Positions 1 to 9,795 are shown, counted from the stretch's first letter. The stretch is DNA of 18,326 bases from Myxococcota bacterium (GCA_041611735.1 JBFIML010000057.1:1-18326); one strand, 5' to 3'. The notes: a model not told the origin generated them from the letters alone. Made by a program: numbers and translations.

Positions 1-25
1 CCTGGTTCGAATCCAGGAGGGCCCA
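1..25 (+). tRNA. 3' part of a tRNA gene (T-arm, 3' acceptor strand, discriminator); the 5' part lies upstream of the window. Identity undetermined (Ile or Lys plausible)
   Basis: CCTGG(1-5)/CCAGG(13-17) is a perfect 5-bp T-stem around the canonical T-loop TTCGAAT(6-12). AGGGCCC(18-24) fits a 3' acceptor strand, A25 is the discriminator, and CCC follows rather than CCA. The anticodon is not in the window. Confidence 0.75.
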
Positions 26-29
26 CCCG
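5..29 (+). repeat. att-like core, copy 1 (25 bp, tRNA 3' end)
   Basis: GTTCGAATCCAGGAGGGCCCACCCG, identical to 3745-3769 and 6742-6766. Confidence 0.95.
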
Positions 30-31
30 CC

Positions 32-44
32 TAACCCTCTGAAT
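32..44 (+). promoter_or_regulatory. IHF-like box downstream of core 1
   Basis: TAACCCTCTGAAT resembles YAANNNNTTGATW. Near-identical CAACTCTCTGAAT sits at the same +3 offset after core 3. Confidence 0.45.
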
Positions 45-65
45 CGTCTCGACTTTTCAGCTGCG

Positions 66-93
66 CCTGGAAGAATCCAGGAGGTACCCACCG
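66..93 (+). repeat. Degenerate fourth copy of the tRNA 3' end/att core
   Basis: CCTGG-AAGAAT-CCAGG-AGGTACCCACCG versus CCTGG-TTCGAAT-CCAGG-AGGGCCCACCCG at 1-29. Confidence 0.75.
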
Positions 94-128
94 AACCACC
101 CGACATCGCGGAGGTTCTTCGGCGGTTT

Positions 129-149
129 CTTGTCGCTCGCTTGTCGCTC
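129..149 (+). repeat. Tandem TTGTCGC doublet (putative integrase arm-type sites), left end of cassette 1
   Basis: CTTGTCGCTC-G-CTTGTCGCTC, 11-bp period; same motif as 3668-3685 and 6664-6681. Confidence 0.65.
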
Positions 150-274
150 TAGCGGTGACAGCTCGCAGCCGAAGGGGCGAGATCCAAAGGCCTCGGTCGC
201 AGAGACGACTCGGCTCTCCCAGAGACTGTCGCCGGCCCGTACTACACTGGAGCGGCCACGAAGGGGCTCTCCAG

Positions 275-3200
275 ATGAGCTTCATCGACACCGTGCGCCG
301 AGCCCGGGAGCTCCTCCGGGAGGAAGGACGCATCAGCCTCCGCGGGCTGAAGCGCGAGTTCAGGCTCGACGACGAGGCCCTCGAGGAGCTGATCGAAGAG
401 CTGGTCGACATCCAACAGGTCGCGGCGCGGGAGGGGAAGGCCGTCGCGTGGATCGGCGGTGCAGCGCACGACCGGGCTGAGGCGGTCGCGAGGCCTTCAG
501 CGGGAGCCGAGCCCGCAGCCCAGGCCGAGCGCCGTCAACTCACGGTCATGTTCTGCGACCTGGTGGGCTCGACGAATCTCTCCCAGCGTCTCGATGCCGA
601 GGACCTGCGCGATGTCGTGCGCGCCTACCAGGAGTCGGTCTCCGCAGTCATCGAGCGTTACGAGGGCCACGTCGCCCAGTACCTGGGCGACGGCCTCCTC
701 GTCTACTTCGGCTATCCGCAGGCACACGAAGACGACGCAGAGCGTGCCGTGCGGGCCGGGCGCGAGATCCTGGCAACCCTGGGCACCTTGAACGACCGGC
801 TCGAGCCCGAGCACGGCATCCGCCTCGCTGCGCGGGTGGGCATCCACACCGGCCCCGTCGTGGTGGGCGAGATGGGAGGCGGGGCGAAGAGCGAGACCCT
901 CGCCCTCGGCGACACCACGAACATCGCGGCACGGCTTGAAGCCATCGCCCATCCCGACTCGGTCGTGATCAGCAGGGCGACGCTGCGACTCGTCCCTGGC
1001 CTCTTCGCAACGAAGGACCTCGGCACCCCGGCTCTGAAGGGGATCGCCGAACCGGTCCATGCCTACGCCGTGCTCCAGGCGACCGGCGTGCGCAGCCGCC
1101 TCGACGTGGACCCGAGCAAGCTCACTCCGCTCGTGGGACGCGACCAGGAGCTCGGGCTACTCGTCGAGCGCTGGGAGCAAGTCGGGGAGGGCGAGGGCCA
1201 GACAGTGCTCGTCTCGGGCGAGGCGGGTCTCGGGAAGTCGCGGCTGCTCCAGGCGTTCCGCGAGCAACTGGCCGAGACGCCACACGGCTGGCTCGAGTGC
1301 CGTTGCTCGCCCTACACCCAGGGCAGTGCGTTCCATCCTCTGATCGAGCTGATGGAGCAGGGCCTGGGCATTCAGGCGGGAGACGATCCGGAGACGAAGC
1401 TCGCGCGCCTGGAAGCGGGCCTCGCGGCCGCCGGTTTCCTGATCCCGGAGGTGGCTCCCCTCCTCGCACCGCTCCTCTCGCTTCCGCTCCCGGATCGCTA
1501 CCCGCCACTCCAGTTCAGTCCCGAGCTCCAGCGCAAGAAGACGATCGAGGCGCTGGTCGCCTGGACGTTCGGGCTCGGCGAGTCGCAGCCCGCGGTGCTG
1601 CTGGTGGAGGACCTCCACTGGTGCGATGCCTCGACGTTGGAGGCGATCGGCTGGCTGGTGGAGCAGAACCCCACCGCGAAGGTGCTCACGCTCTTGAGTT
1701 TCCGGCCCGACTTCGAGCCGCCCTGGCCGGCCCGCTCCCACGTCACACCCCTGGCGGTCAAGCGCCTCTCCCGCCGTCAGGCCACGGATCTGATCGGAGG
1801 GATGACGCACGACGCGCCGCTCCCAGGTGCGGTGGTGGAGCGCGTCGTCGAGCGGGCTGACGGAGTACCGCTCTTCCTGGAGGAACTCACCAAGACGGTG
1901 CTTGAGTCGGATCTCGTCGAGAAGCGCGAGGGCCACTACGAGCTTACCGGCCCGATCGCGGAGTTGGCCATTCCAGCCACGCTGCAGGACTCGCTGATGG
2001 CCCGCCTCGACCAGCTCGACGAGGGCAAGGGAGTCGCGCAGCTCGGCGCCGCCCTCGGGCGCGAGTTCTTCTACGAGCTGCTGCGCAGAGTCTCGCTCGA
2101 CGAGGAGTCGCGCCTGCGCGCCGGCCTGGCCCAGCTCGTGGACGCCGAGCTCCTCTACCAGCGGGGCTCCGTGCCTCGGGCGGAGTTCACCTTCAAGCAC
2201 GCGCTGATCCAGGAGACCGCATACCAGTCGCTCCTGCGCAGTGTGCGCCAGCCGCTCCACGCGCGCATCGCGAAGGTGCTGGAGGAGCAGTTCCCGGAGC
2301 GGGCCGAGGCGGAGCCCGAGGTCATAGCAAGGCACTACGACGAGGCCGGGCTGGCCGGGCCGGCCATCGCCCACTACCGACGCGCGGGCGAGGGGGCCAT
2401 GCAGCGCTCGGCCCACGAGGAGGCCATCGGTCACCTGCGGCGTGCGCTCCAGCTGCTCGCGACCCTGCCGGAGACTCGTGAGCGCCACCGGCAGGAGCTG
2501 GCCTTGCAGATCGCGCTCGGGACTCCGCTTGCCGGAGTCCGGGCGTGGTCGCATCCGGAGTACGAGCAGACTTTCGCCCGCGCGCGCGAGCTGGCTTCCC
2601 GGATCGGCGACGCGCCCGAGCTGGCGCGGGTGCTCGTGGGGATGGCGCAAGCGCCGTTCGTCCAGGGTGAGGTCACTGCCGCCGCCGAGATCGGGCGGCA
2701 GGCGCTGGCAGCTGCCGAGCGCACCGGAGACGTCTTCGACCAGCTCTCGGCCCACTACCAGATCGGCATGGCATTGCTCTGCCACGGCCGGGTCGCTCCG
2801 GGCCTGCGGCACTTCGAGCAGACCCTCGCGCTCTACGATCCCGCCGCGCACGGCGCTCGTGCCAACGCGATGGACATCAACCGCGGCCTCGCAGCCCGCG
2901 ATTTCGCGGGCCTCGCTCACGTGCACCTCGGCCACCCCGACCGGGCGCTGGCCGTGGTCGATCGGGCGGTCGAGCTGGCGCAGCACTCGGGGCACCCCGT
3001 CAATCGGGCGGACGCGCTCTTCCACGCCTTACTCGTCCACTTCGAACGCCGCGAGTTCGACCGGATGCGGGAGCGCGCCGAAGCGCTCATCGATCACTCC
3101 GAGCGGATCGGGCTTCCCTTCTACCTGAACTCCGGACACGTGCTTCGAGGGAGGGCACGGGTCGAAGCGGGCGAGGTCGAGGCGGGTGTCGAGGAGATGC

Positions 3201-3646
3201 GGCGCTCGGTCGACGAGCTGGCCCGGGCGGGCAGCGGGATCGTAGCGCCCTGCCGCCACGTGCTGCTCGCCGAGGGCCTCCAGAAGCTCGGACAGCCGGG
3301 CCGGGCCCTGGACGTCATCGAATCCGGTCTCGCGCAGGCGCAGGCCCAGAGCCAGCTCCTCAATGCTCCCGACCTCCACCGGCTTCACGCGGAGACCCTG
3401 CTCGACCTTGGACGGCATGCGGACGAGCCGGAGGCGCCCCTGCGCCGGGCCCTCGAGCTTGCACGACGGCAGGAGCAGAAGACCTACGAGCTCCGCGCCG
3501 CCACGTCCCTCGCCCACCTATGGCAGCGCCAGGGAAAGTCCACCGAGGCCAACGACCTTCTCCAGCCCGTCTACGACTGGTTCACCGAAGGCTTCGACAC
3601 GCGCGACGTGAGGGAAGCGAAGGCGCTGCTCGAGAATCTGTCCTAG
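275..3646 (+). CDS. Class III adenylate/guanylate cyclase - STAND (AAA_16-like) ATPase - TPR protein with a small N-terminal winged-helix-like domain (about 1123 aa)
   Basis: Likely start ATG275 (MSFIDTVRR). Cyclase motifs ERRQLTVMFCDLVGS, QYLGDG and GDTTNIAARL; Walker A GEAGLGKS; Walker B LLVEDLHW; FKHALIQETAY; helical repeats ending in the family-typical YDWFTEGFDT. Confidence 0.92.
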   Translation: MSFIDTVRRARELLREEGRISLRGLKREFRLDDEALEELIEELVDIQQVAAREGKAVAWIGGAAHDRAEAVARPSAGAEPAAQAERRQLTVMFCDLVGSTNLSQRLDAEDLRDVVRAYQESVSAVIERYEGHVAQYLGDGLLVYFGYPQAHEDDAERAVRAGREILATLGTLNDRLEPEHGIRLAARVGIHTGPVVVGEMGGGAKSETLALGDTTNIAARLEAIAHPDSVVISRATLRLVPGLFATKDLGTPALKGIAEPVHAYAVLQATGVRSRLDVDPSKLTPLVGRDQELGLLVERWEQVGEGEGQTVLVSGEAGLGKSRLLQAFREQLAETPHGWLECRCSPYTQGSAFHPLIELMEQGLGIQAGDDPETKLARLEAGLAAAGFLIPEVAPLLAPLLSLPLPDRYPPLQFSPELQRKKTIEALVAWTFGLGESQPAVLLVEDLHWCDASTLEAIGWLVEQNPTAKVLTLLSFRPDFEPPWPARSHVTPLAVKRLSRRQATDLIGGMTHDAPLPGAVVERVVERADGVPLFLEELTKTVLESDLVEKREGHYELTGPIAELAIPATLQDSLMARLDQLDEGKGVAQLGAALGREFFYELLRRVSLDEESRLRAGLAQLVDAELLYQRGSVPRAEFTFKHALIQETAYQSLLRSVRQPLHARIAKVLEEQFPERAEAEPEVIARHYDEAGLAGPAIAHYRRAGEGAMQRSAHEEAIGHLRRALQLLATLPETRERHRQELALQIALGTPLAGVRAWSHPEYEQTFARARELASRIGDAPELARVLVGMAQAPFVQGEVTAAAEIGRQALAAAERTGDVFDQLSAHYQIGMALLCHGRVAPGLRHFEQTLALYDPAAHGARANAMDINRGLAARDFAGLAHVHLGHPDRALAVVDRAVELAQHSGHPVNRADALFHALLVHFERREFDRMRERAEALIDHSERIGLPFYLNSGHVLRGRARVEAGEVEAGVEEMRRSVDELARAGSGIVAPCRHVLLAEGLQKLGQPGRALDVIESGLAQAQAQSQLLNAPDLHRLHAETLLDLGRHADEPEAPLRRALELARRQEQKTYELRAATSLAHLWQRQGKSTEANDLLQPVYDWFTEGFDTRDVREAKALLENLS

Positions 3647-3666
3647 CCGAGATCGCGACGCAGAAG

Positions 3667-3732
3667 CTTTTCGCTCGTTTGTCGCTCGCGAAGAACCGAC
3701 CCTGTAAGTGCCTGATCTACTTGTCTTTCTTC
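3667..3732 (+). promoter_or_regulatory. Conserved right-end signal block of cassette 1 (arm-type doublet, IHF-like box, CTTGTCTTTCTTC)
   Basis: TTTTCGC(3668-3674), TTGTCGC(3679-3685), TAAGTGCCTGATC(3705-3717) and CTTGTCTTTCTTC(3720-3732). Same order and internal spacing as the block before core 3. Confidence 0.65.
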
Positions 3733-3744
3733 GGATCCCTCCTC

Positions 3745-3769
3745 GTTCGAATCCAGGAGGGCCCACCCG
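3745..3769 (+). repeat. att-like core, copy 2
   Basis: Exact 25-bp match to 5-29. The 5' T-stem strand reads CCTCG, so the stem is broken and this is a fragment, not a tRNA. Confidence 0.95.
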
Positions 3770-3821
3770 TAGCGTCTTGCGTTCGCTCGAGCGTCGGTGC
3801 GGAGCGCGGCCAGCCCCGCCG

Positions 3822-4901
3822 CTATTCCGAGCGGCGGCGACCGGTCACGTAGACGGCGAAGATCGTCACAACCGTGAACGGGATCACGAACTCGAGCATC
3901 ACGGCGCTGAAGCGCGAGAGGGCAGCGTGCTGCTGCGAGGCAAACACGAGGTAGAGCGTGTACGCGACGTAGTACGCGACAAACAGCACTCCCTGCCAGC
4001 GCGGGATCTGGTGCTTGCGCGCCATCAACGGTAGACAGGCGGCGGCGACTGCTGTCATCACGGGCAGGTCGAAGCTCTCGATCGCGGGTGACACGATCAG
4101 GCCTCCGGGTGACGCCATCGCGCAGACACCGAGGATGCCGAGCAGATTGAAGATGTTGCTGCCGATCACGTTGCCGACGGCGATGTCGCGCTCGCCGCGG
4201 AGCGTCGCCATCAGCGAGGTCGCGACCTCTGGAAGACTGGTGCCCGCCGCGACGATCGTCAGCGCGATCACGGCCTCGTCCACGCTGAGCGCGCGTGCCG
4301 TCTCTACCGCCCCGGAGACCAGGAGGCGTGCGCCGACGACCAGCACCGCGAGCGATGCCACCACCACCCCGGCGTCGAGCACCATTCCGCGGCCGACCGA
4401 CGGCCCGGCCGGCACGCCGGCCTCGTACTCGTCGCGGATTGCCGCGCTCTCGCGCCGGCTCACGCGCACCGAATCCCAGCAGAACCACGCGAGGCCCGCC
4501 GCGAGGAGGCCCCCTTCGACAAGAACGATGCGCCCGTCGAAGCCGAAGAGCAGCACCACGAAGGAGACGGCGATCATCACGGGCACGTCGCGGAACACGA
4601 GCTGCTGCGCAACCGCGAGCGGCCTCAGCACGGCGCACACGCCGAGGATGGCCAGGACATTGAAGATGTTGCTTCCCACCACGTTGCCCACGGCGATGTC
4701 GGGCTTGCCGTCCGCCGTGGCCGCGACGCCGACCACCAGCTCGGGAGCGCTGGTGCCGAAGGCCACCACAGTGAGGCCGATCACGAGCGGCGCCACGCCG
4801 AGGCGGCGCGCGATGCCGGACGCGCCGCGCACGAGCCCCTCTCCACCGGCAACGAGGAGCGCGAGGCCACCTGCGAAGAGACCGAGCGTGGCGAATTCCA
4901 T
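3822..4901 (-). CDS. yrbG: Calcium/sodium (Ca2+/cation) antiporter, YrbG/CaCA family (359 aa)
   Basis: Two alpha-repeats: GLTVVAFGTSAPEL...GNVVGSNIFN and ALTIVAAGTSLPEV...GNVIGSNIFN; many hydrophobic segments. Confidence 0.93.
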   Translation of the reverse strand: MEFATLGLFAGGLALLVAGGEGLVRGASGIARRLGVAPLVIGLTVVAFGTSAPELVVGVAATADGKPDIAVGNVVGSNIFNVLAILGVCAVLRPLAVAQQLVFRDVPVMIAVSFVVLLFGFDGRIVLVEGGLLAAGLAWFCWDSVRVSRRESAAIRDEYEAGVPAGPSVGRGMVLDAGVVVASLAVLVVGARLLVSGAVETARALSVDEAVIALTIVAAGTSLPEVATSLMATLRGERDIAVGNVIGSNIFNLLGILGVCAMASPGGLIVSPAIESFDLPVMTAVAAACLPLMARKHQIPRWQGVLFVAYYVAYTLYLVFASQQHAALSRFSAVMLEFVIPFTVVTIFAVYVTGRRRSE

Positions 4902-5021
4902 GGCGGGTGATAATCACCTCCTGCGGTAGGCCAGCACGCGGGACTCGCCACTCGGCTACGCTTCTGCCACGTCTTGCGCGGGTTCGCCTGCCGCGCGGGC
5001 CAGGCGCTGGGGGGAAGTGGT

Positions 5022-6527
5022 ATGGTGGCGGTTCTCCTGCTCGTCGCACTGCTCCTGCTGCTGCTCAACGCATTCTTCGTCCTTGCGGAATTCGCCGCCG
5101 TGAAGATGCGGCCGACGCGCGTCGAAGAGCTCGCTCGCGCCGGGGATGCGCGCGCGCTGTTGCTCCGCCACGTCCAGGAACATCTCGACGAGTACCTTTC
5201 GGTGTGTCAGGTCGGCATCACGCTGGCGAGCATCGGTCTCGGGTTCGTGGGAGAGCCGGCGTTCGCTCGTCTGATCGAGCCCCTCGTCGCATGGTCAGGC
5301 GCGGCATCCGCGACGGTAGCGCACTCGCTGGCCATCGGGATCGCGTACGTGGTGATCTCCTTCCTGCACATCGTCCTGGGCGAGCTCGTGCCGAAGTCGA
5401 TCGCCATCCGCGGCGCCGAGCGAGCCGGCCTGTTCGTGGCGCGCCCGCTCCGCATCTTCCACCGCATCTTCCTGCTGCCGCTCGTGCTGCTGAACGGCTC
5501 GGCGAACTTCCTGCTGCGATGCCTGGGCTATCCCGCTCGGCCGATCGAGCGGGGCCCGTCGGAGCGCGAGCTCAAGATCACGCTGTCGGGCCTGCAATCC
5601 GAGGGCCGCATCTCGTTTCAGCGCGTGCTCCTGCTCGAGAACGTGTTCGATCTGGCCGGCATCAAGGTGAGGGACGAGATGCTCCCGCGCGACCGGGTCA
5701 GATCGCTGCGCATCGGGATGGCCTGGTCGGAGATCGAGCAGATCGTGCGCGACACCCGCTACTCGCGCTACCCGGTGCTCGACGCGTCCGAACGGGTCAT
5801 GGGGGTCCTGCACGTGAAGGATCTCCTGTACGAGGCGCTGGGACACGGACTCGAGATGCGGACGGACCTCTCGGCCGTGGCGCGACCCTGCTCGAGCGTC
5901 GACCCGGAGATGCCCCTCGAGCAGCTGCTGCGCGAGCTGCAGCGCAGCCGCTCCCATGGGGCCGCGGTGGTCGACGCGCGCGGCCGCTGGATCGGCTGGA
6001 TCACGCTGGAGGACGTGCTCGAGGAGATCGTCGGTACGATCGAGGACGAGTTCGAGCGCGAGCCGTCCTGCTTCCTGGGTGACGCGTTGCGCGAAGATCG
6101 CATCCTGCTGGACCTCGACGCGCCGTCGATCCGCGACGCGATCGCGGCGGCGATCCACGCGCTCGACCCTCTCGCCCTGCCCGCGCCTCCGGAGGAGATC
6201 ATCCGGCTGGCGCAGGAGCGGGAGGATGCGATGGGCACCTATCTCGGGAGCGGGGTGGCGCTGCCGCACGCGCGACTGCCGGGCGTCTCGCGTTCGCTGC
6301 TCGTCTTCGCGCGCTCTCTCGCCGGCGTTCCGGTCGCCTCGACGGGCGGGCGTGCCCACTTCCTCTTCATTCTGCTGACGCCGGCCACCCGTCCTCGCGA
6401 GCACGTGCGACTCGCGGCCCGTGTGGCCCACCTCTTCGAGAGCGAGTTCATTCCCGAGCGGCTGCGCCTCGCTGCGAGCCGCAGCGAGATCCTCGAGATC
6501 ATCCGGGAAGGCGACCTCAAACGTTGA
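5022..6527 (+). CDS. CNNM/DUF21 (HlyC/CorC family) membrane protein with a CBS pair and C-terminal PTS EIIA (Ntr/Fru-type) domain (about 501 aa)
   Basis: Likely start ATG5022. LNAFFVLAEFA, QVGITLASIGLG and LGELVPKSIA (DUF21); YSRYPV and GWITLEDVLEEIVGTIEDE (CBS); then EREDAMGTYLGSGVALPHAR (EIIA phospho-His motif). Confidence 0.88.
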   Translation: MVAVLLLVALLLLLLNAFFVLAEFAAVKMRPTRVEELARAGDARALLLRHVQEHLDEYLSVCQVGITLASIGLGFVGEPAFARLIEPLVAWSGAASATVAHSLAIGIAYVVISFLHIVLGELVPKSIAIRGAERAGLFVARPLRIFHRIFLLPLVLLNGSANFLLRCLGYPARPIERGPSERELKITLSGLQSEGRISFQRVLLLENVFDLAGIKVRDEMLPRDRVRSLRIGMAWSEIEQIVRDTRYSRYPVLDASERVMGVLHVKDLLYEALGHGLEMRTDLSAVARPCSSVDPEMPLEQLLRELQRSRSHGAAVVDARGRWIGWITLEDVLEEIVGTIEDEFEREPSCFLGDALREDRILLDLDAPSIRDAIAAAIHALDPLALPAPPEEIIRLAQEREDAMGTYLGSGVALPHARLPGVSRSLLVFARSLAGVPVASTGGRAHFLFILLTPATRPREHVRLAARVAHLFESEFIPERLRLAASRSEILEIIREGDLKR

Positions 6528-6558
6528 GCGCGACTGCTACGGATCGAGAATCCGAGCG

Positions 6559-6580
6559 GGATCTCGAGCCCTCGAGATCC
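6559..6580. other. Inverted repeat downstream of the CNNM gene (possible hairpin or pause site)
   Basis: GGATCTCGAG-CC-CTCGAGATCC, perfect 10-bp arms. There is no U-tract, so it is not a canonical intrinsic terminator. Confidence 0.4.
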
Positions 6581-6662
6581 GCAGACCTCCGATCGTGACG
6601 AGTCGAGGGGATCGAAGGAAGGGGCGGCGTCCGCAGAAGTGGGTCACGCGACGCGCTCGCAG

Positions 6663-6728
6663 CTTGTCGCCAACTTGTCGCCAGGCCCGATCCGCTCGCG
6701 CAACTACTTGGAATCCTTGTCTTTCTTC
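6663..6728 (+). promoter_or_regulatory. Conserved right-end signal block of cassette 2 (arm-type doublet, IHF-like box, CTTGTCTTTCTTC)
   Basis: TTGTCGC(6664-6670), TTGTCGC(6675-6681), CAACTACTTGGAA(6701-6713) and CTTGTCTTTCTTC(6716-6728). Confidence 0.65.
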
Positions 6729-6741
6729 CCCTTCCCGTCCG

Positions 6742-6766
6742 GTTCGAATCCAGGAGGGCCCACCCG
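6742..6766 (+). repeat. att-like core, copy 3
   Basis: Exact 25-bp match to 5-29. The 5' T-stem strand reads TCCGG (imperfect) and no D-arm or anticodon arm lies upstream. Confidence 0.95.
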
Positions 6767-6956
6767 TGCAACTCTCTGAATCCATGGCGGCTTTCAATCT
6801 CAGCTCAGATCCAACCAAGGACTCTGAAACCCTTGACCCGCGTTCGTCTCGCGGAACCGGTTGCCGCCGGCAGCGATAGGTGCTCGGAATGCGGGTACTC
6901 TCATCGCCTTCCGATCCCCCTGCTACGCTGCTTGGGCAGCACCAACAGGGTTCGCC

Positions 6957-7391
6957 ATGCCTCATCGCAGCGCCGACGAAAAGGTCGCCGAGGAGCTCTC
7001 GCGGCACGGTCTTCGTGCCACGCGCCAGCGCATTGCGGCGCTCCGCCTCCTCCGCCGCCTGAAGAGCCACCCGACTTCGGCGGAGCTCCACGCGCGGCTG
7101 CTTCCCGAGCACGAGAACTTGAGCCAGAAGACTGTCTACGAGATCCTGGATGCCCTGGTCCAGGCGGGCCTGGCTTCTCGCGTGACGGCGGTGGGTGGCC
7201 CGTACCGATACGAAGCGACGCCGGAACCCCACTATCACGCGACGTGTCGCGTTTGCGAGCGGCTGTACGACGTTCCAGCGGATGCGGACGCCCAGATCCG
7301 TGGGCGTGCGAAGCTGCCCGAAGGCTTCCAAGTGGAGAAGATCGACGTCACGATTCGCGGCGTATGCCTTCGCTGCCGGGACGAAATCTGA
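6957..7391 (+). CDS. Fur-family transcriptional repressor, PerR-like (144 aa)
   Basis: Likely start ATG6957. GLRATRQR, SHPTSAEL, LSQKTVYEIL, HYHATCRVC...LYDV and C-terminal CLRC (two CxxC, PerR-type Asp). Lies directly upstream of katG. Confidence 0.88.
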   Translation: MPHRSADEKVAEELSRHGLRATRQRIAALRLLRRLKSHPTSAELHARLLPEHENLSQKTVYEILDALVQAGLASRVTAVGGPYRYEATPEPHYHATCRVCERLYDVPADADAQIRGRAKLPEGFQVEKIDVTIRGVCLRCRDEI

Positions 7392-7434
7392 GGCGGATCG
7401 CCCCAGTCCGGCGACAGGGCCGATTGCCCTCGCC

Positions 7435-9795
<2,361 letters not shown>

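Follow-up and report, generated by a model that had tools for sequence, protein, structure and literature searches.

Paired 11-nt repeats beside tRNA-Met 3′-end copies in a Myxococcota bacterium: candidate arm-type integrase sites in a probable tandem array of decayed genomic islands

The window analysed here, an 18,326-nt stretch of DNA from a Myxococcota bacterium, contains three copies of a short core sequence, with TTGTCGC doublets beside them. This arrangement raises the question of what the doublets are and what kind of element the cores delimit. The initial annotation had read them as a lambda-type attachment architecture placed around unrelated cassettes. In the present study, we compared the locus with the rest of the genome, with related genomes and with known recombination systems.

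Arrangement of the repeats around tRNA-Met 3′ ends

The features of the window are listed in Table 1. TTGTCGC was found at 130/141, 3679 and 6664/6675, and the doublet partner of the 3679 copy was TTTTCGC at 3668, with one mismatch. The YAA-N4-YTG box occurred as TAAGTGCCTG at 3705 and as CAACTACTTG at 6701, the 13-mer CTTGTCTTTCTTC at 3720-3732 and 6716-6728, and CGCGACGC at 3654 and 6647. Spacings were measured to GTTCGAATCC at 3745 (core 2) and 6742 (core 3); the distances were 66 and 67 nt for the second TTGTCGC, 40 and 41 nt for the box, and 12 and 13 nt for the 13-mer. All these elements and spacings agreed with the initial annotation, as did the third doublet that it had placed inside the left end of cassette 1.

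The core 23-mer had three exact matches in the window, versus none expected, and the three cores, at 5-29, 3745-3769 and 6742-6766, are tRNA-Met(CAT) 3′ ends. ARAGORN detected no whole tRNA in the window. The intact tRNA-Met(CAT) gene is located on contig C64, and the cores are identical to its 3′ end. On C64, TTGTCGCCAACTTGTCGCC begins 41 nt after the core 23-mer and is followed by a tyrosine integrase gene on the reverse strand (PF00589, E 9e-15, 55.3 bits against a cut-off of 27.1). The same layout of tRNA, doublet and integrase was observed at L010, L012, L014, L022 and L026-L036. The window contig starts at base 1 within the core 1 repeat, and the join from C64 to the start of C57 was absent from the assembly. 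The annotated repeats were real, but the "cores" are tRNA-Met 3′ ends, and the "cassettes" are read as decayed tDNA islands and not integron-type units. An integron gene-cassette array was rejected: TIGR02249 scored 27.8 bits against a cut-off of 265, the repeats were tRNA fragments, and the inter-cassette sequences folded no better than shuffles.

The degenerate core at the left end of cassette 1 was missed by the core search at up to 3 mismatches. The P′ profile gave a weak match to the window at 94-147 (E 0.61), and the P′ doublet there was of the subtype common to the P′ arms of L033/L035. The ortholog of the cassette 1 P doublet in L028/L054 was TTGTCGCTCGTTTGTCGCTCGC, and the P-arm profile, whose training set included this copy, matched 3667-3742 at E 1.5e-12. 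No doublet was found after core 2; in tblastn, the read-through tail of the integrase matched window 3814-3731 with 61% identity over 28 aa (E 5e-5). Core 3 was followed by fur-like, katG and molybdenum-cofactor genes, and no integrase remnant was found within the window.

Table 1. Features at the left end of the window, with positions counted from its first nucleotide.
Feature	Position	Strand	Basis or remark
Core 1: tRNA-Met(CAT) 3′-end copy of 25 nt, spanning T-loop, 3′ T-stem and acceptor strand	5..29	+	Exact 23-mer match; same as tRNA on C64
Short flank after core 1, like the flank after core 3 (common CTCTGAATC and CTTT(T)CA..CT)	29..66	+	By-eye reading of alignment rows L021+4 and L047+1475
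Degenerate core copy, T-loop changes included	67..93	+	About 23/28 aligned columns identical, by eye
Cassette 1 doublet on the integrase-side (P′) arm, subtype II: TTGTCGCTCGC + TTGTCGCTCTA	130..151	+	37 nt after degenerate core
Cassette 1 cargo: 1123-aa adenylate/guanylate cyclase, AAA ATPase, TPR protein	275..3646	+	PF00211, PF13191, TPR
Cassette 1 doublet on the P arm, subtype II: TTTTCGCTCGT + TTGTCGCTCGC	3668..3689	+	First copy with one mismatch
IHF-like box GATCAGGCACTTA	3705..3717	-	7/9 specified consensus positions
Pyrimidine-rich 13-mer CTTGTCTTTCTTC	3720..3732	+	Exact match; ends 12 nt before GTTCGAATCC
Core 2, junction of cassettes 1 and 2	3745..3769	+	Bridged by run X1 contig (3573-4500)
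Core-proximal P′ arm remnant, without doublet and integrase gene	3771..3814	+	tblastn
Cassette 2 cargo: Na+/Ca2+ exchanger family protein	3822..4901	-	PF01699
Cassette 2 cargo: CNNM/CBS transporter-like protein with PTS EIIA-2 domain	5022..6527	+	
P arm doublet, subtype I: TTGTCGCCAAC + TTGTCGCCAGG	6664..6685	+	Subtype as P′ doublet beside C64 integrase
IHF-like box TTCCAAGTAGTTG	6701..6713	-	7/9 positions
13-mer CTTGTCTTTCTTC, second copy	6716..6728	+	
Core 3, last tRNA-Met 3′-end copy	6742..6766	+	Bridged by run X1 contig (5022-7188)

Rarity, conservation and subtypes of the doublets

TTGTCGC occurred 262 times on both strands of the 4.09 Mb genome (G000), and only five pairs of neighbouring copies lay within 60 nt. 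All five were exactly 11 nt apart, compared with about 0.01 pairs expected at one fixed spacing by our own arithmetic from the genome counts. Each of the five pairs adjoined tRNA-Met or tmRNA-like 3′-end sequence. The exact 13-mer was confined genome-wide to its two window copies. The relatives are kin and cross-genome counts are thus not independent; with this in mind, the exact doublet was present in 8 of 16 family relatives, all 16 sites of the doublet scan adjoined a tRNA-Met or tmRNA-type end, and a reversed control pattern had 0 matches in all 17 genomes. A closed 5.8 Mb relative had only two doublets at up to one mismatch, both beside cores.

The spacing was similarly constant. Downstream (integrase-side) doublets started at +41 from the core in 15 of 15 cases, and upstream doublets (n = 10) started at -76 (4), -77 (5) or -80 (1) before displaced cores; these values recurred in a second comparison. 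This constancy, together with the integrase that lies beside the true tRNA with the same doublet, upheld the annotated scheme of helically phased, lambda-type arm sites around the core. In an alignment of the arms, the doublet stood out as the best-conserved block outside the core; the 11-nt period of the repeat was also retained, as were the box, a pyrimidine tract and the distances. Distinct arms numbered 17 on the P side and 19 on the P′ side. The pyrimidine tract occupied the position of the 13-mer and read TTTGTCTTTCTTC in subtype III arms. The cargo enclosed by the arms was unrelated and varied from element to element, while integrase and arms were kept. It had been claimed that conservation of motifs alone pointed to selection on recombination signals rather than duplication. 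The selection part of this claim was supported; conservation was not limited to motifs, because each whole window P arm shared about 83% identity with an ortholog from another genome. For the arm at 6664, doublet included, this counterpart (83%) was the P arm of an 18.6 kb element that is complete in G020. The P-arm profile found no full-length arm copies elsewhere in the genome.

The arm repeats consisted of two adjacent 11-mers with the variants TTGTCGCCAAS, TTGTCGCTCGY or TTGTCGGTGGC. These subtypes tracked integrase lineage: integrase identity was 69-100% with CCA[AG][CG] spacers, 64-69% with CTCG and 63-68% with GGTGG. In addition, the subtype was alike at both ends of all five units having both doublets (window cassette 1, G020 C3, G021 C100, G022 C14 and G022 C62), and these results further supported the annotated scheme of arm sites. 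More distant integrases at tRNA-Glu had GGGACAA or CCGACAA doublets, again with an 11-nt period. Among 35 aligned homologs, of which all 31 classifiable ones fitted the pattern, the aromatic residue at N-domain position 36 was Y in 10/10 TTGTCCC-type and W in 21/21 TTGTCG-type integrases; this pattern may follow clades and nothing more. No subtype II integrase was found in the assembly, which is 95% complete.

The box and CGCGACGC gave more mixed results. As a pattern, YAA-N4-YTG is loose and matched 2078 times in the genome; the box nevertheless sat in a block that aligned across 17 distinct arms, and the best IHF-like match was at one fixed offset in 10/17 P arms and 11/19 P′ arms. Scored against the E. 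coli consensus (nine specified positions), the arms were barely above shuffles: P arms reached 6.18 versus 5.82 (sd 0.70), and P′ arms 6.53 versus 5.49 (sd 0.76). The host genome encodes IHF alpha and beta (ihfA, ihfB) above the NCBIfam cut-offs. An IHF site is plausible for the annotated box as a conserved block at a fixed position, although its score is marginal. CGCGACGC did precede both P arm doublets of the window, but it occurred 1381 times in the genome and was absent from the closest orthologous arm, L028/L054, and its position is probably due to chance.

Integrase and proposed use of the arm repeats

The AlphaFold model of the C64 integrase (mean pLDDT 81.7) showed N-terminal strands at 11-17 and 22-28 and a helix at 46-61, followed by a normal recombinase body. 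The matches in a fold search with the N-domain included 3jtz_A, the HPI integrase arm-binding domain (Z 3.5, rmsd 2.6, 52 aligned, 21% identity); this match was weak and ranked 27th, unrelated folds scored as high as Z 5.5, and AP2 domains also matched weakly (Z 3.2-3.8). No Pfam arm-binding family matched the integrase at E 0.001 or better. In the catalytic region, R222, H351 and Y360 were each kept in 34/35 homologs, while E325 (32/35) and K328 (35/35) aligned to the catalytic His-II/Arg-II of XerA, an XerC-like recombinase and XerD. PMC8138268 gives the tyrosine recombinase pentad as RKHRH plus a Tyr nucleophile. With Glu and Lys at His and Arg positions, the chemistry of this integrase would not be textbook.

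Based on these results, we consider that the window represents a tandem array of decayed genomic-island remnants at tRNA-Met(CAT), in which the doublets would be arm-type sites of a lambda-style integrase family (probability roughly 0.78). Each unit would terminate in a displaced tRNA 3′-end copy, and the 11-mer pairs would be sites of one heterobivalent tyrosine integrase family, with the P′ pair on the integrase side from 41 nt after the core 23-mer and the P pair on the far side from 76-80 nt before it. The small N-terminal domain may grip the arm repeats, while the core-binding and catalytic domains may work at CCTGG/CCAGG, the inverted halves of the T-stem on either side of the 7-nt T-loop; strand exchange probably takes place in this loop. 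The A/T-richer boxes that lie between arm and core may be bound by host IHF; by bending the DNA, they could bring both sites within reach of a single protein. Cassette 1 keeps a matched subtype II arm pair and seems to have lost its integrase, and all that cassette 2 keeps is its P arm (subtype I) with a P′ stub. The initial annotation had further suggested that a circular cassette 1 would carry arm-IHF-core-IHF-arm. Both arm doublets are indeed kept, but such a site would be damaged: one P repeat is mutated, and the spacing to the P′ doublet is 37 nt if counted from the degenerate core, or 103 nt from the intact core 1, versus the usual 41 nt.

The binder of the doublets might instead be another protein of the element, such as an excisionase/directionality factor or a regulator, with the repeats still serving as recombination signals. 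Excisionase sites, too, typically consist of direct repeats in tandem and in helical phase, and the weak fold match of the integrase N-domain leaves room for such a protein. We regard this as unlikely, in that the repeats lie at fixed distances on both arms, stay beside integrases whose neighbouring cargo wholly differs, and co-vary with both the integrase lineage and the N-domain residue. It is less likely again that the shared motifs are inherited leftovers of related dead islands, their order and spacing reflecting common descent and not ongoing selection or function. The alignment of each whole P arm to an ortholog elsewhere, the decayed state of the integrase-less window units, and the finding of no joint between cores in the contigs of four public runs (assembled contigs drop rare forms) all fit with such leftovers. 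However, the sequence between the conserved elements differs among subtypes I, II and III, the doublet exceeds every other block beyond the core in conservation, and intact integrase-bearing elements have the same layout.

The remaining explanations concern a coding or an RNA function. The P′ doublet could have been kept as coding sequence for a C-terminal tail of the integrase, since the open frame on C64 runs on through doublet and core into the tRNA and database proteins of the family have such tails. This is very improbable: residues 371-415 were predicted to be disordered (pLDDT <50), and P arms carry this DNA repeat as well, despite containing no integrase frame. Moreover, tmRNA- and tRNA-Glu-type relatives have the repeat inverted relative to the gene, and the peptides differ (GDKLAT, LSPACRQ, LSRTCP, GGLSV), which indicates conservation at the level of the DNA rather than of the peptide. 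Because the tail is predicted to be disordered, high G+C probably accounts for the extension of the frame over the attachment site. Least probable of all is a structured small RNA or tRNA-derived repeat element formed by the unit of about 110 nt that holds doublet, box, 13-mer and tRNA-like end. The unit does end in tRNA T-arm and acceptor sequence, but Rfam gave no match at E up to 1 (window 1-7500), ARAGORN found no gene, the unit folded no better than shuffles (z -1.40 and +1.22), and full-length arm copies are absent elsewhere in the genome.

Relation to known integration systems

The preferred reading, an island array with integrase arm sites, has a close counterpart in lambda Int and attP (P1, P2, P′1-3; H1, H2, H′). 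In both systems, the tyrosine recombinase has an extra N-terminal domain, and each arm carries short direct repeats that differ from the core. As on the lambda P′ side, the core is followed by an A/T-richer IHF-like box and then by adjacent 10-11-bp arm repeats. By our own count, the arm repeats lie at about +59 to +80 from the crossover centre, distances that we take to be close to those of lambda P′1-P′2. Foldseek matched the full integrase model to lambda Int (1z1b_A) at E 1.9e-8 with about 14% sequence identity. Unlike lambda with its free-standing attB, the present system targets the T-loop of a tRNA; each arm has two repeats versus 2+3, the catalytic His-II/Arg-II positions are Glu/Lys, and IHF use and arm binding are predicted from sequence.

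In myxobacteria, the integrase of myxophage Mx8 is a tyrosine integrase that targets a tRNA gene; attP lies inside int, and the int frame crosses the attachment site. The integrase reading frame on C64 likewise runs across the attachment site. Among phage records, no Mx8-like match to the C64 integrase was found, and the best matches were mycobacteriophage integrases at about 24% identity.

The array as a whole resembles tandem tDNA islands (Islander-type; Dehalococcoides ssrA), with an intact tRNA or tmRNA gene at one end, displaced 3′-end direct repeats between units, variable cargo, some units without an integration module, and insertion that would fall in the T-loop. PMC3146451 describes multiple islands in tandem with a conserved motif just upstream of each repeat, and 15 islands without integration modules; PMC4383910 also bears on this comparison. 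The Dehalococcoides islands have a serine recombinase, whereas a tyrosine recombinase with arm repeats is found here, and the target here is tRNA-Met (and tmRNA), in Myxococcota.

With its matched arms and no integrase, cassette 1 is also comparable to CIMEs and site-specific accretion (ICESt1/ICESt3, Streptococcus thermophilus). Cassette 2 differs from CIMEs in having no P′ repeats, and any mobility of the window units is putative. The related integrase-bearing elements examined carried restriction and other defence-type genes and no conjugation genes. Taken together, cassettes 1 and 2 read as decayed, CIME-like units, which at best would be mobile only with the help of the subtype I integrase on C64. 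Such stacking of islands at a tRNA end is a known arrangement, encountered here in an uncultured myxobacterium.

TTGTCGC doublets and the tRNA-Met cores

The window makes up the entire contig C57 of its assembly, G000 (4.09 Mb, 118 contigs, 72% G+C, 95% complete). All the elements listed in the initial annotation were recovered where it had placed them, and the distances that it had claimed to GTTCGAATCC (3745, 6742), namely 66/67 nt for the second TTGTCGC repeat, 40/41 nt for the IHF-like box and 12/13 nt for the 13-mer, were confirmed. It was observed that the three cores are identical over 25 bases, which match the end of tRNA-Met(CAT), from the T-loop through the 3' T-stem to the acceptor strand. 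The only complete copy of this tRNA gene in G000 lies on contig C64, and ARAGORN detected no whole tRNA in the window. On C64, TTGTCGCCAACTTGTCGCC begins 41 nt past the 23-mer GGTTCGAATCCAGGAGGGCCCAC of tRNA-Met, and the opposite-strand gene beyond the doublet matches the PF00589 phage-integrase family (55.3 bits, cut-off 27.1; E 9e-15). A tRNA-integrated island carries the restored gene and the integrase at attL, with displaced 3' fragments farther on at attR; the C64 layout is this usual picture of an island inserted in a tRNA gene. The 7-nt T-loop, which the inverted T-stem halves enclose, is the most likely place of strand exchange, since the identity between arm and tRNA begins at GGTTCG and the element-derived left half retains a CC(Y)GG-like partner of CCAGG.

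Coordinates of cores, repeats, boxes, matched-arm units and further tRNA/tmRNA-type ends
Feature	Location	Position	Remark
Core 1	window	5-29	
Core 2	window	3745-3769	
Core 3	window	6742-6766	
TTGTCGC	window	130/141, 3679, 6664/6675	
TTTTCGC	window	3668	partner of 3679, one mismatch
13-mer CTTGTCTTTCTTC	window	3720-3732 and 6716-6728	
CGCGACGC	window	3654 and 6647	
IHF-like box TAAGTGCCTG	window	3705	
IHF-like box CAACTACTTG	window	6701	
Matched unit, subtype II	window, cassette 1	130-151 and 3668-3689	
Matched unit, subtype I	G020, contig C3	172 to 18774	18.6 kb
Matched unit, subtype II	G021, contig C100	75 to 22445	
Matched unit, subtype III	G022, contig C14	42565 to 56761	
Matched unit, subtype I	G022, contig C62	20247 to 2887	
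tmRNA 3'-end copy	G000, contig C5	13540-13632	TTGTCGC doublet ~52 nt away, inverted relative to tRNA-Met sites
Other tRNA-like end	G000, contig C92	1005-1100	doublet ~52 nt away, inverted relative to tRNA-Met sites
tmRNA gene	G000, contig C78	8-374	end 8 nt from contig end

TTGTCGC occurs 262 times in G000 on both strands together, and only five neighbouring pairs lie within 60 nt of each other, all five spaced by exactly 11 nt. Three of these pairs are on C57 and C64 and the others on C5 and C92, where they also sit at tRNA/tmRNA-type ends. The tmRNA- and tRNA-like ends on C5, C92 and C78 are a second target of the same system. At two loci of relatives (L011 and L020), the order is integrase, doublet and tmRNA end. 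Assemblies break at such sites, as seen for C57, which starts inside a core, and for the tmRNA gene of C78, 8 nt from the contig end. A search of all contig ends of the assembly found no contig that precedes C57 or links it to C64; because C57 begins in a core and is joined to C64 by no contig, the order tRNA, integrase element and window is only presumed. Cores 2 and 3 were bridged as assembled in contigs of public runs. By eye, the 38 nt past core 1 (29-66) resemble the flank past core 3 (6767-6810); both flanks share CTCTGAATC and a CTTT(T)CA..CT stretch, and a degenerate core follows at 67-93. The stretch 29-93 appears to be part of the original downstream flank, duplicated or carried along together with an old core.

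Arm layout, subtypes and the integrase in relatives

Eight of the 16 genomes from the same family contained the exact doublet, and a reversed control pattern gave 0 matches in 17 genomes. All 16 sites of the scan adjoin a tRNA-Met or tmRNA-type end: five read tRNA-Met/doublet/integrase, six doublet/~59 nt/displaced core and two integrase/doublet/tmRNA end, and three were further sites in G000. The same layout was present at 17 more loci encoding integrase relatives (54-92% identity) in genome records, titled mostly as Myxococcota or delta-proteobacterial MAGs and in some cases with other taxon labels. Downstream doublets, which form the P' arm on the integrase side, begin at +41 in 15/15 distinct core sites. 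Ten upstream doublets, which form the P arm before a displaced core, start at -76 (n=4), -77 (n=5) or -80 (n=1), and a further set of sites gave the same values (+41; -76 to -80). In the closed 5.8 Mb chromosome of the relative G017, only two doublets were found at ≤1 mismatch, both beside cores. These are an integrase-side site (L044, ~1.8746 Mb) and a far-side site (L043, ~3.0171 Mb), 1.14 Mb apart on the same strand. The G017 integrase-side core lies outside any tRNA, ~730 nt downstream of a tRNA-Met with a different T-stem; an unannotated open frame occupies the interval, and no P arm is present there. In the relative G022 (L053, L058, L061, L064, L066, L068-L078), 16 cores at ≤2 mismatches are spread over 12 contigs; one is a tRNA and 15 are fragments, at least eight of which have upstream P doublets, and several P-core-P' junctions mix subtypes I and III. 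The G022 cores belong either to one very long array or to a single hot spot represented by several strain variants. Visual inspection of the window had suggested a degenerate P' arm past core 3, around 6820-6850, but the profile scan gave no match there at E ≤10.

The repeat unit is 11 bp long and occurs as TTGTCGCCAAS (subtype I), TTGTCGCTCGY (II) or TTGTCGGTGGC (III), with the heptamer TTGTCG[CG] common to all; the two window arms are of different subtypes, which explains the differences between them. Repeats with CCA[AG][CG] spacers stand beside integrases 69-100% identical to the C64 protein, type II repeats beside integrases at 64-69% and type III repeats beside integrases at 63-68% identity to it. 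The subtype was equal at both ends in 5/5 units with doublets at both ends on one contig. More distant integrases at tRNA-Glu genes are accompanied by GGGACAA or CCGACAA doublets with the same 11-nt period in opposite orientation. Among 35 aligned homologs, position 36 of the N-domain is Y in 10/10 TTGTCCC-type and W in 21/21 TTGTCG-type proteins, with four unclassed; this pattern is compatible with an arm-binding domain that co-evolved with its site, although it may simply follow clades.

A search of a large protein collection returned 173 integrase homologs at E ≤0.001. The model of the C64 integrase (L024:315-1562) had a mean pLDDT of 81.7 and showed an N-terminal unit (strands 11-17 and 22-28, helix 46-61) followed by a recombinase body, which Foldseek grouped with XerA, Tn1549 Int, integron integrase and lambda Int. 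The N-terminal 78 residues folded alone reached a pLDDT of 75 and gave weak fold matches only. The N-terminal unit matched 3jtz_A, the arm-binding domain of the HPI integrase, at Z 3.5 (rmsd 2.6, 52 aligned, 21% identity), and AP2 domains at Z 3.2-3.8, with unrelated folds reaching Z 5.5. These matches are consistent with an arm-binding domain but not decisive. When aligned to XerA, an XerC-like recombinase and XerD, the His-II and Arg-II positions were occupied by E325 in 32/35 and K328 in 35/35 proteins, which, in a tyrosine recombinase, would make an unusual active site. The integrase open frame crosses the P' doublet into the tRNA (L024:1425-1562 on C64; homologs P0005-P0117), and the read-through tails spell the arm repeats and the T-arm (GDKLAT...GFEPG, LSRTCP, GGLSV, LSPACRQ). 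Tail 371-415 was predicted to be disordered and is therefore probably high-G+C read-through. Many database proteins of the family include this read-through, so that the repeat type can be told from their C-terminal tails, a handy arm-subtype marker in protein databases. The 95%-complete assembly yielded no type II integrase; the type I gene on C64 and a short remnant on contig C60 were all that it contained.

State of the cassettes and the core-proximal elements

Cassette 1 (core 1 to core 2) carries a single gene, for a cyclase/AAA ATPase/TPR protein, and cassette 2 (core 2 to core 3) carries a Na/Ca exchanger and a CNNM/CBS/EIIA protein. Cassette 1 retains a matched type II arm pair without an integrase; its first P repeat is mutated, and its P' doublet lies 37 nt past the degenerate core and 103 nt past the intact core 1. 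Cassette 2 has a type I P arm, and after core 2 no more than a 44-nt stub, homologous to the part of P' nearest the core. From these features, both cassettes look like decayed islands in a tandem array. In this they resemble streptococcal elements, for which a CIME/accretion picture has been described (PMC5704250), and the ssrA islands of Dehalococcoides, for which it has been proposed (PMC3146451). The window shares only two arm-plus-core stretches with the relative G020 (83% identity in each, over 137 nt and 117 nt), and C64 shares only the integrase region (87%). The integrase-bearing elements of G020 and G017 encode restriction-modification, helicase-nuclease, HNH and Fic genes, and no phage or conjugation genes were recognised among their scanned genes. 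The loci L080:2118-16047 (G020) and L051 (G017) contain a Type ISP restriction-modification enzyme, a PLD-helicase, Mrr-N, Fic, HNH nucleases, an SF1 helicase-nuclease and a type III-like methylase/res pair, together with an IS3-type transposase and an HTH-M78 regulator. The arms and the integrase are kept while the unrelated cargo between them changes, which supports the proposed selection on recombination signals. The accompanying claim of motif-only conservation was overstated, since a clear ortholog of every whole arm exists elsewhere.

The exact 13-mer has no other copy in the G000 genome. It is identical in the type II and type I arms of the window; orthologous arms elsewhere differ at this position, e.g., CTATCTTTTCTTTTTC (type II, G020) and CTTCTTCTTTTTCC (type I), and the type III arms of G022 read TTTGTCTTTCTTC. 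The identical 13-mers may have arisen by local homogenisation between the adjacent arms close to the core, or may mark a third site that contains TTGTC. The motif CGCGACGC, considered as a possible signal, was taken as chance because it has 1381 genome copies and is missing from the nearest orthologous arm. The IHF-like box sits in a conserved block, roughly G-Y-A-A-S-T-A-N-C-T-G-G-A-A-T, and G000 encodes both IHF alpha and beta above NCBIfam cut-offs. When scored on a 9-point scale against the E. coli consensus WATCAANNNNTTR, the best match fell at the same minus-strand offset in 10/17 distinct P arms (7/9 for the window copies, 9/9 for one relative), and a second box occurred 3 nt past the core in 11/19 P' arms, with scores up to 9/9. 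However, mean scores were barely above those of shuffles (6.18 vs 5.82 for P arms; 6.53 vs 5.49 for P' arms). The box positions make sense for a DNA-bending protein.

Interpretation and significance

Collectively, the sequence comparisons supported the main interpretation of the initial annotation, that the doublets would serve as arm-type sites of a lambda-style integrase. Other readings were weighed against it. Viral contigs did not contain the pattern of a doublet, 45-75 nt and GTTCGAATCC, and viral collections held no relative by the integrase-family profile; there was thus no sign that the elements are phages, which is not proof. A structured RNA was rejected by tRNA, RNA-family and fold checks, and an integron by integrase-model and fold checks. 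An empty site, that is, an uninterrupted tRNA-flank junction, was not found in 16 family genomes; the flank 6767-7500 has no close DNA match there, the best match to the flank after core 3 being 69% identity over 119 nt. None of the 15 joints listed from assembled contigs of public runs connects two cores, and the short sides of these joints (21-40 nt, at 90% likeness) appear to come from other organisms. In run X5, a tRNA-Met body is joined at a loose end to position 6741; it was rejected as an empty site because its anticodon stem differs from that of the C64 tRNA and equals that of another genome (L058), and it was read as a tRNA from a different organism aligned to the shared core.

Beyond the arm-type sites, we considered a broader and, in our judgement, improbable proposal: the tRNA-Met locus of these marine Myxococcota would be a gene-capture platform, at which a resident Glu/Lys-variant integrase shuffles integrase-less matched-arm units in trans, so that arrays grow and reassort like integron cassettes. 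Integrase-less units, down to a single gene, would retain matched P and P' arm sets. The shuffling would be lambda-style, arm-dependent recombination at the tRNA T-loop, which differs from integron cassettes despite the similar growth and reassortment of arrays. The 16 cores of G022 with many mixed-subtype P-core-P' junctions, the recurrence of the cassette 1 arm in another genome beside a different neighbour and the heptamer shared by every subtype fit gene capture without showing it.

A literature search of limited reach for prior descriptions of the myxobacterial site, or of arm-type sites in tandem islands, yielded nothing beyond general or unrelated papers. The system is already known in kind, both as lambda-style arm sites and as tandem tDNA islands; its mechanism is a textbook one, so that the gain lies in annotation and parts rather than concepts. 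The analysis provides an att layout with a core, two arm pairs, spacings and three specificity subtypes for a myxobacterial integrase family that is still uncharacterised, embedded in tandem tDNA island arrays of up to 16 cores in one relative. The site map allows precise calling of island boundaries at tRNA-Met, tmRNA and tRNA-Glu genes in myxobacterial MAGs, and the matched integrase/arm subtypes could give orthogonal site-specific integration tools for high-G+C bacteria. Because the integrase-bearing islands examined in relatives carry restriction/defence-type genes, these sites may be hot spots for the exchange of defence and signalling genes.
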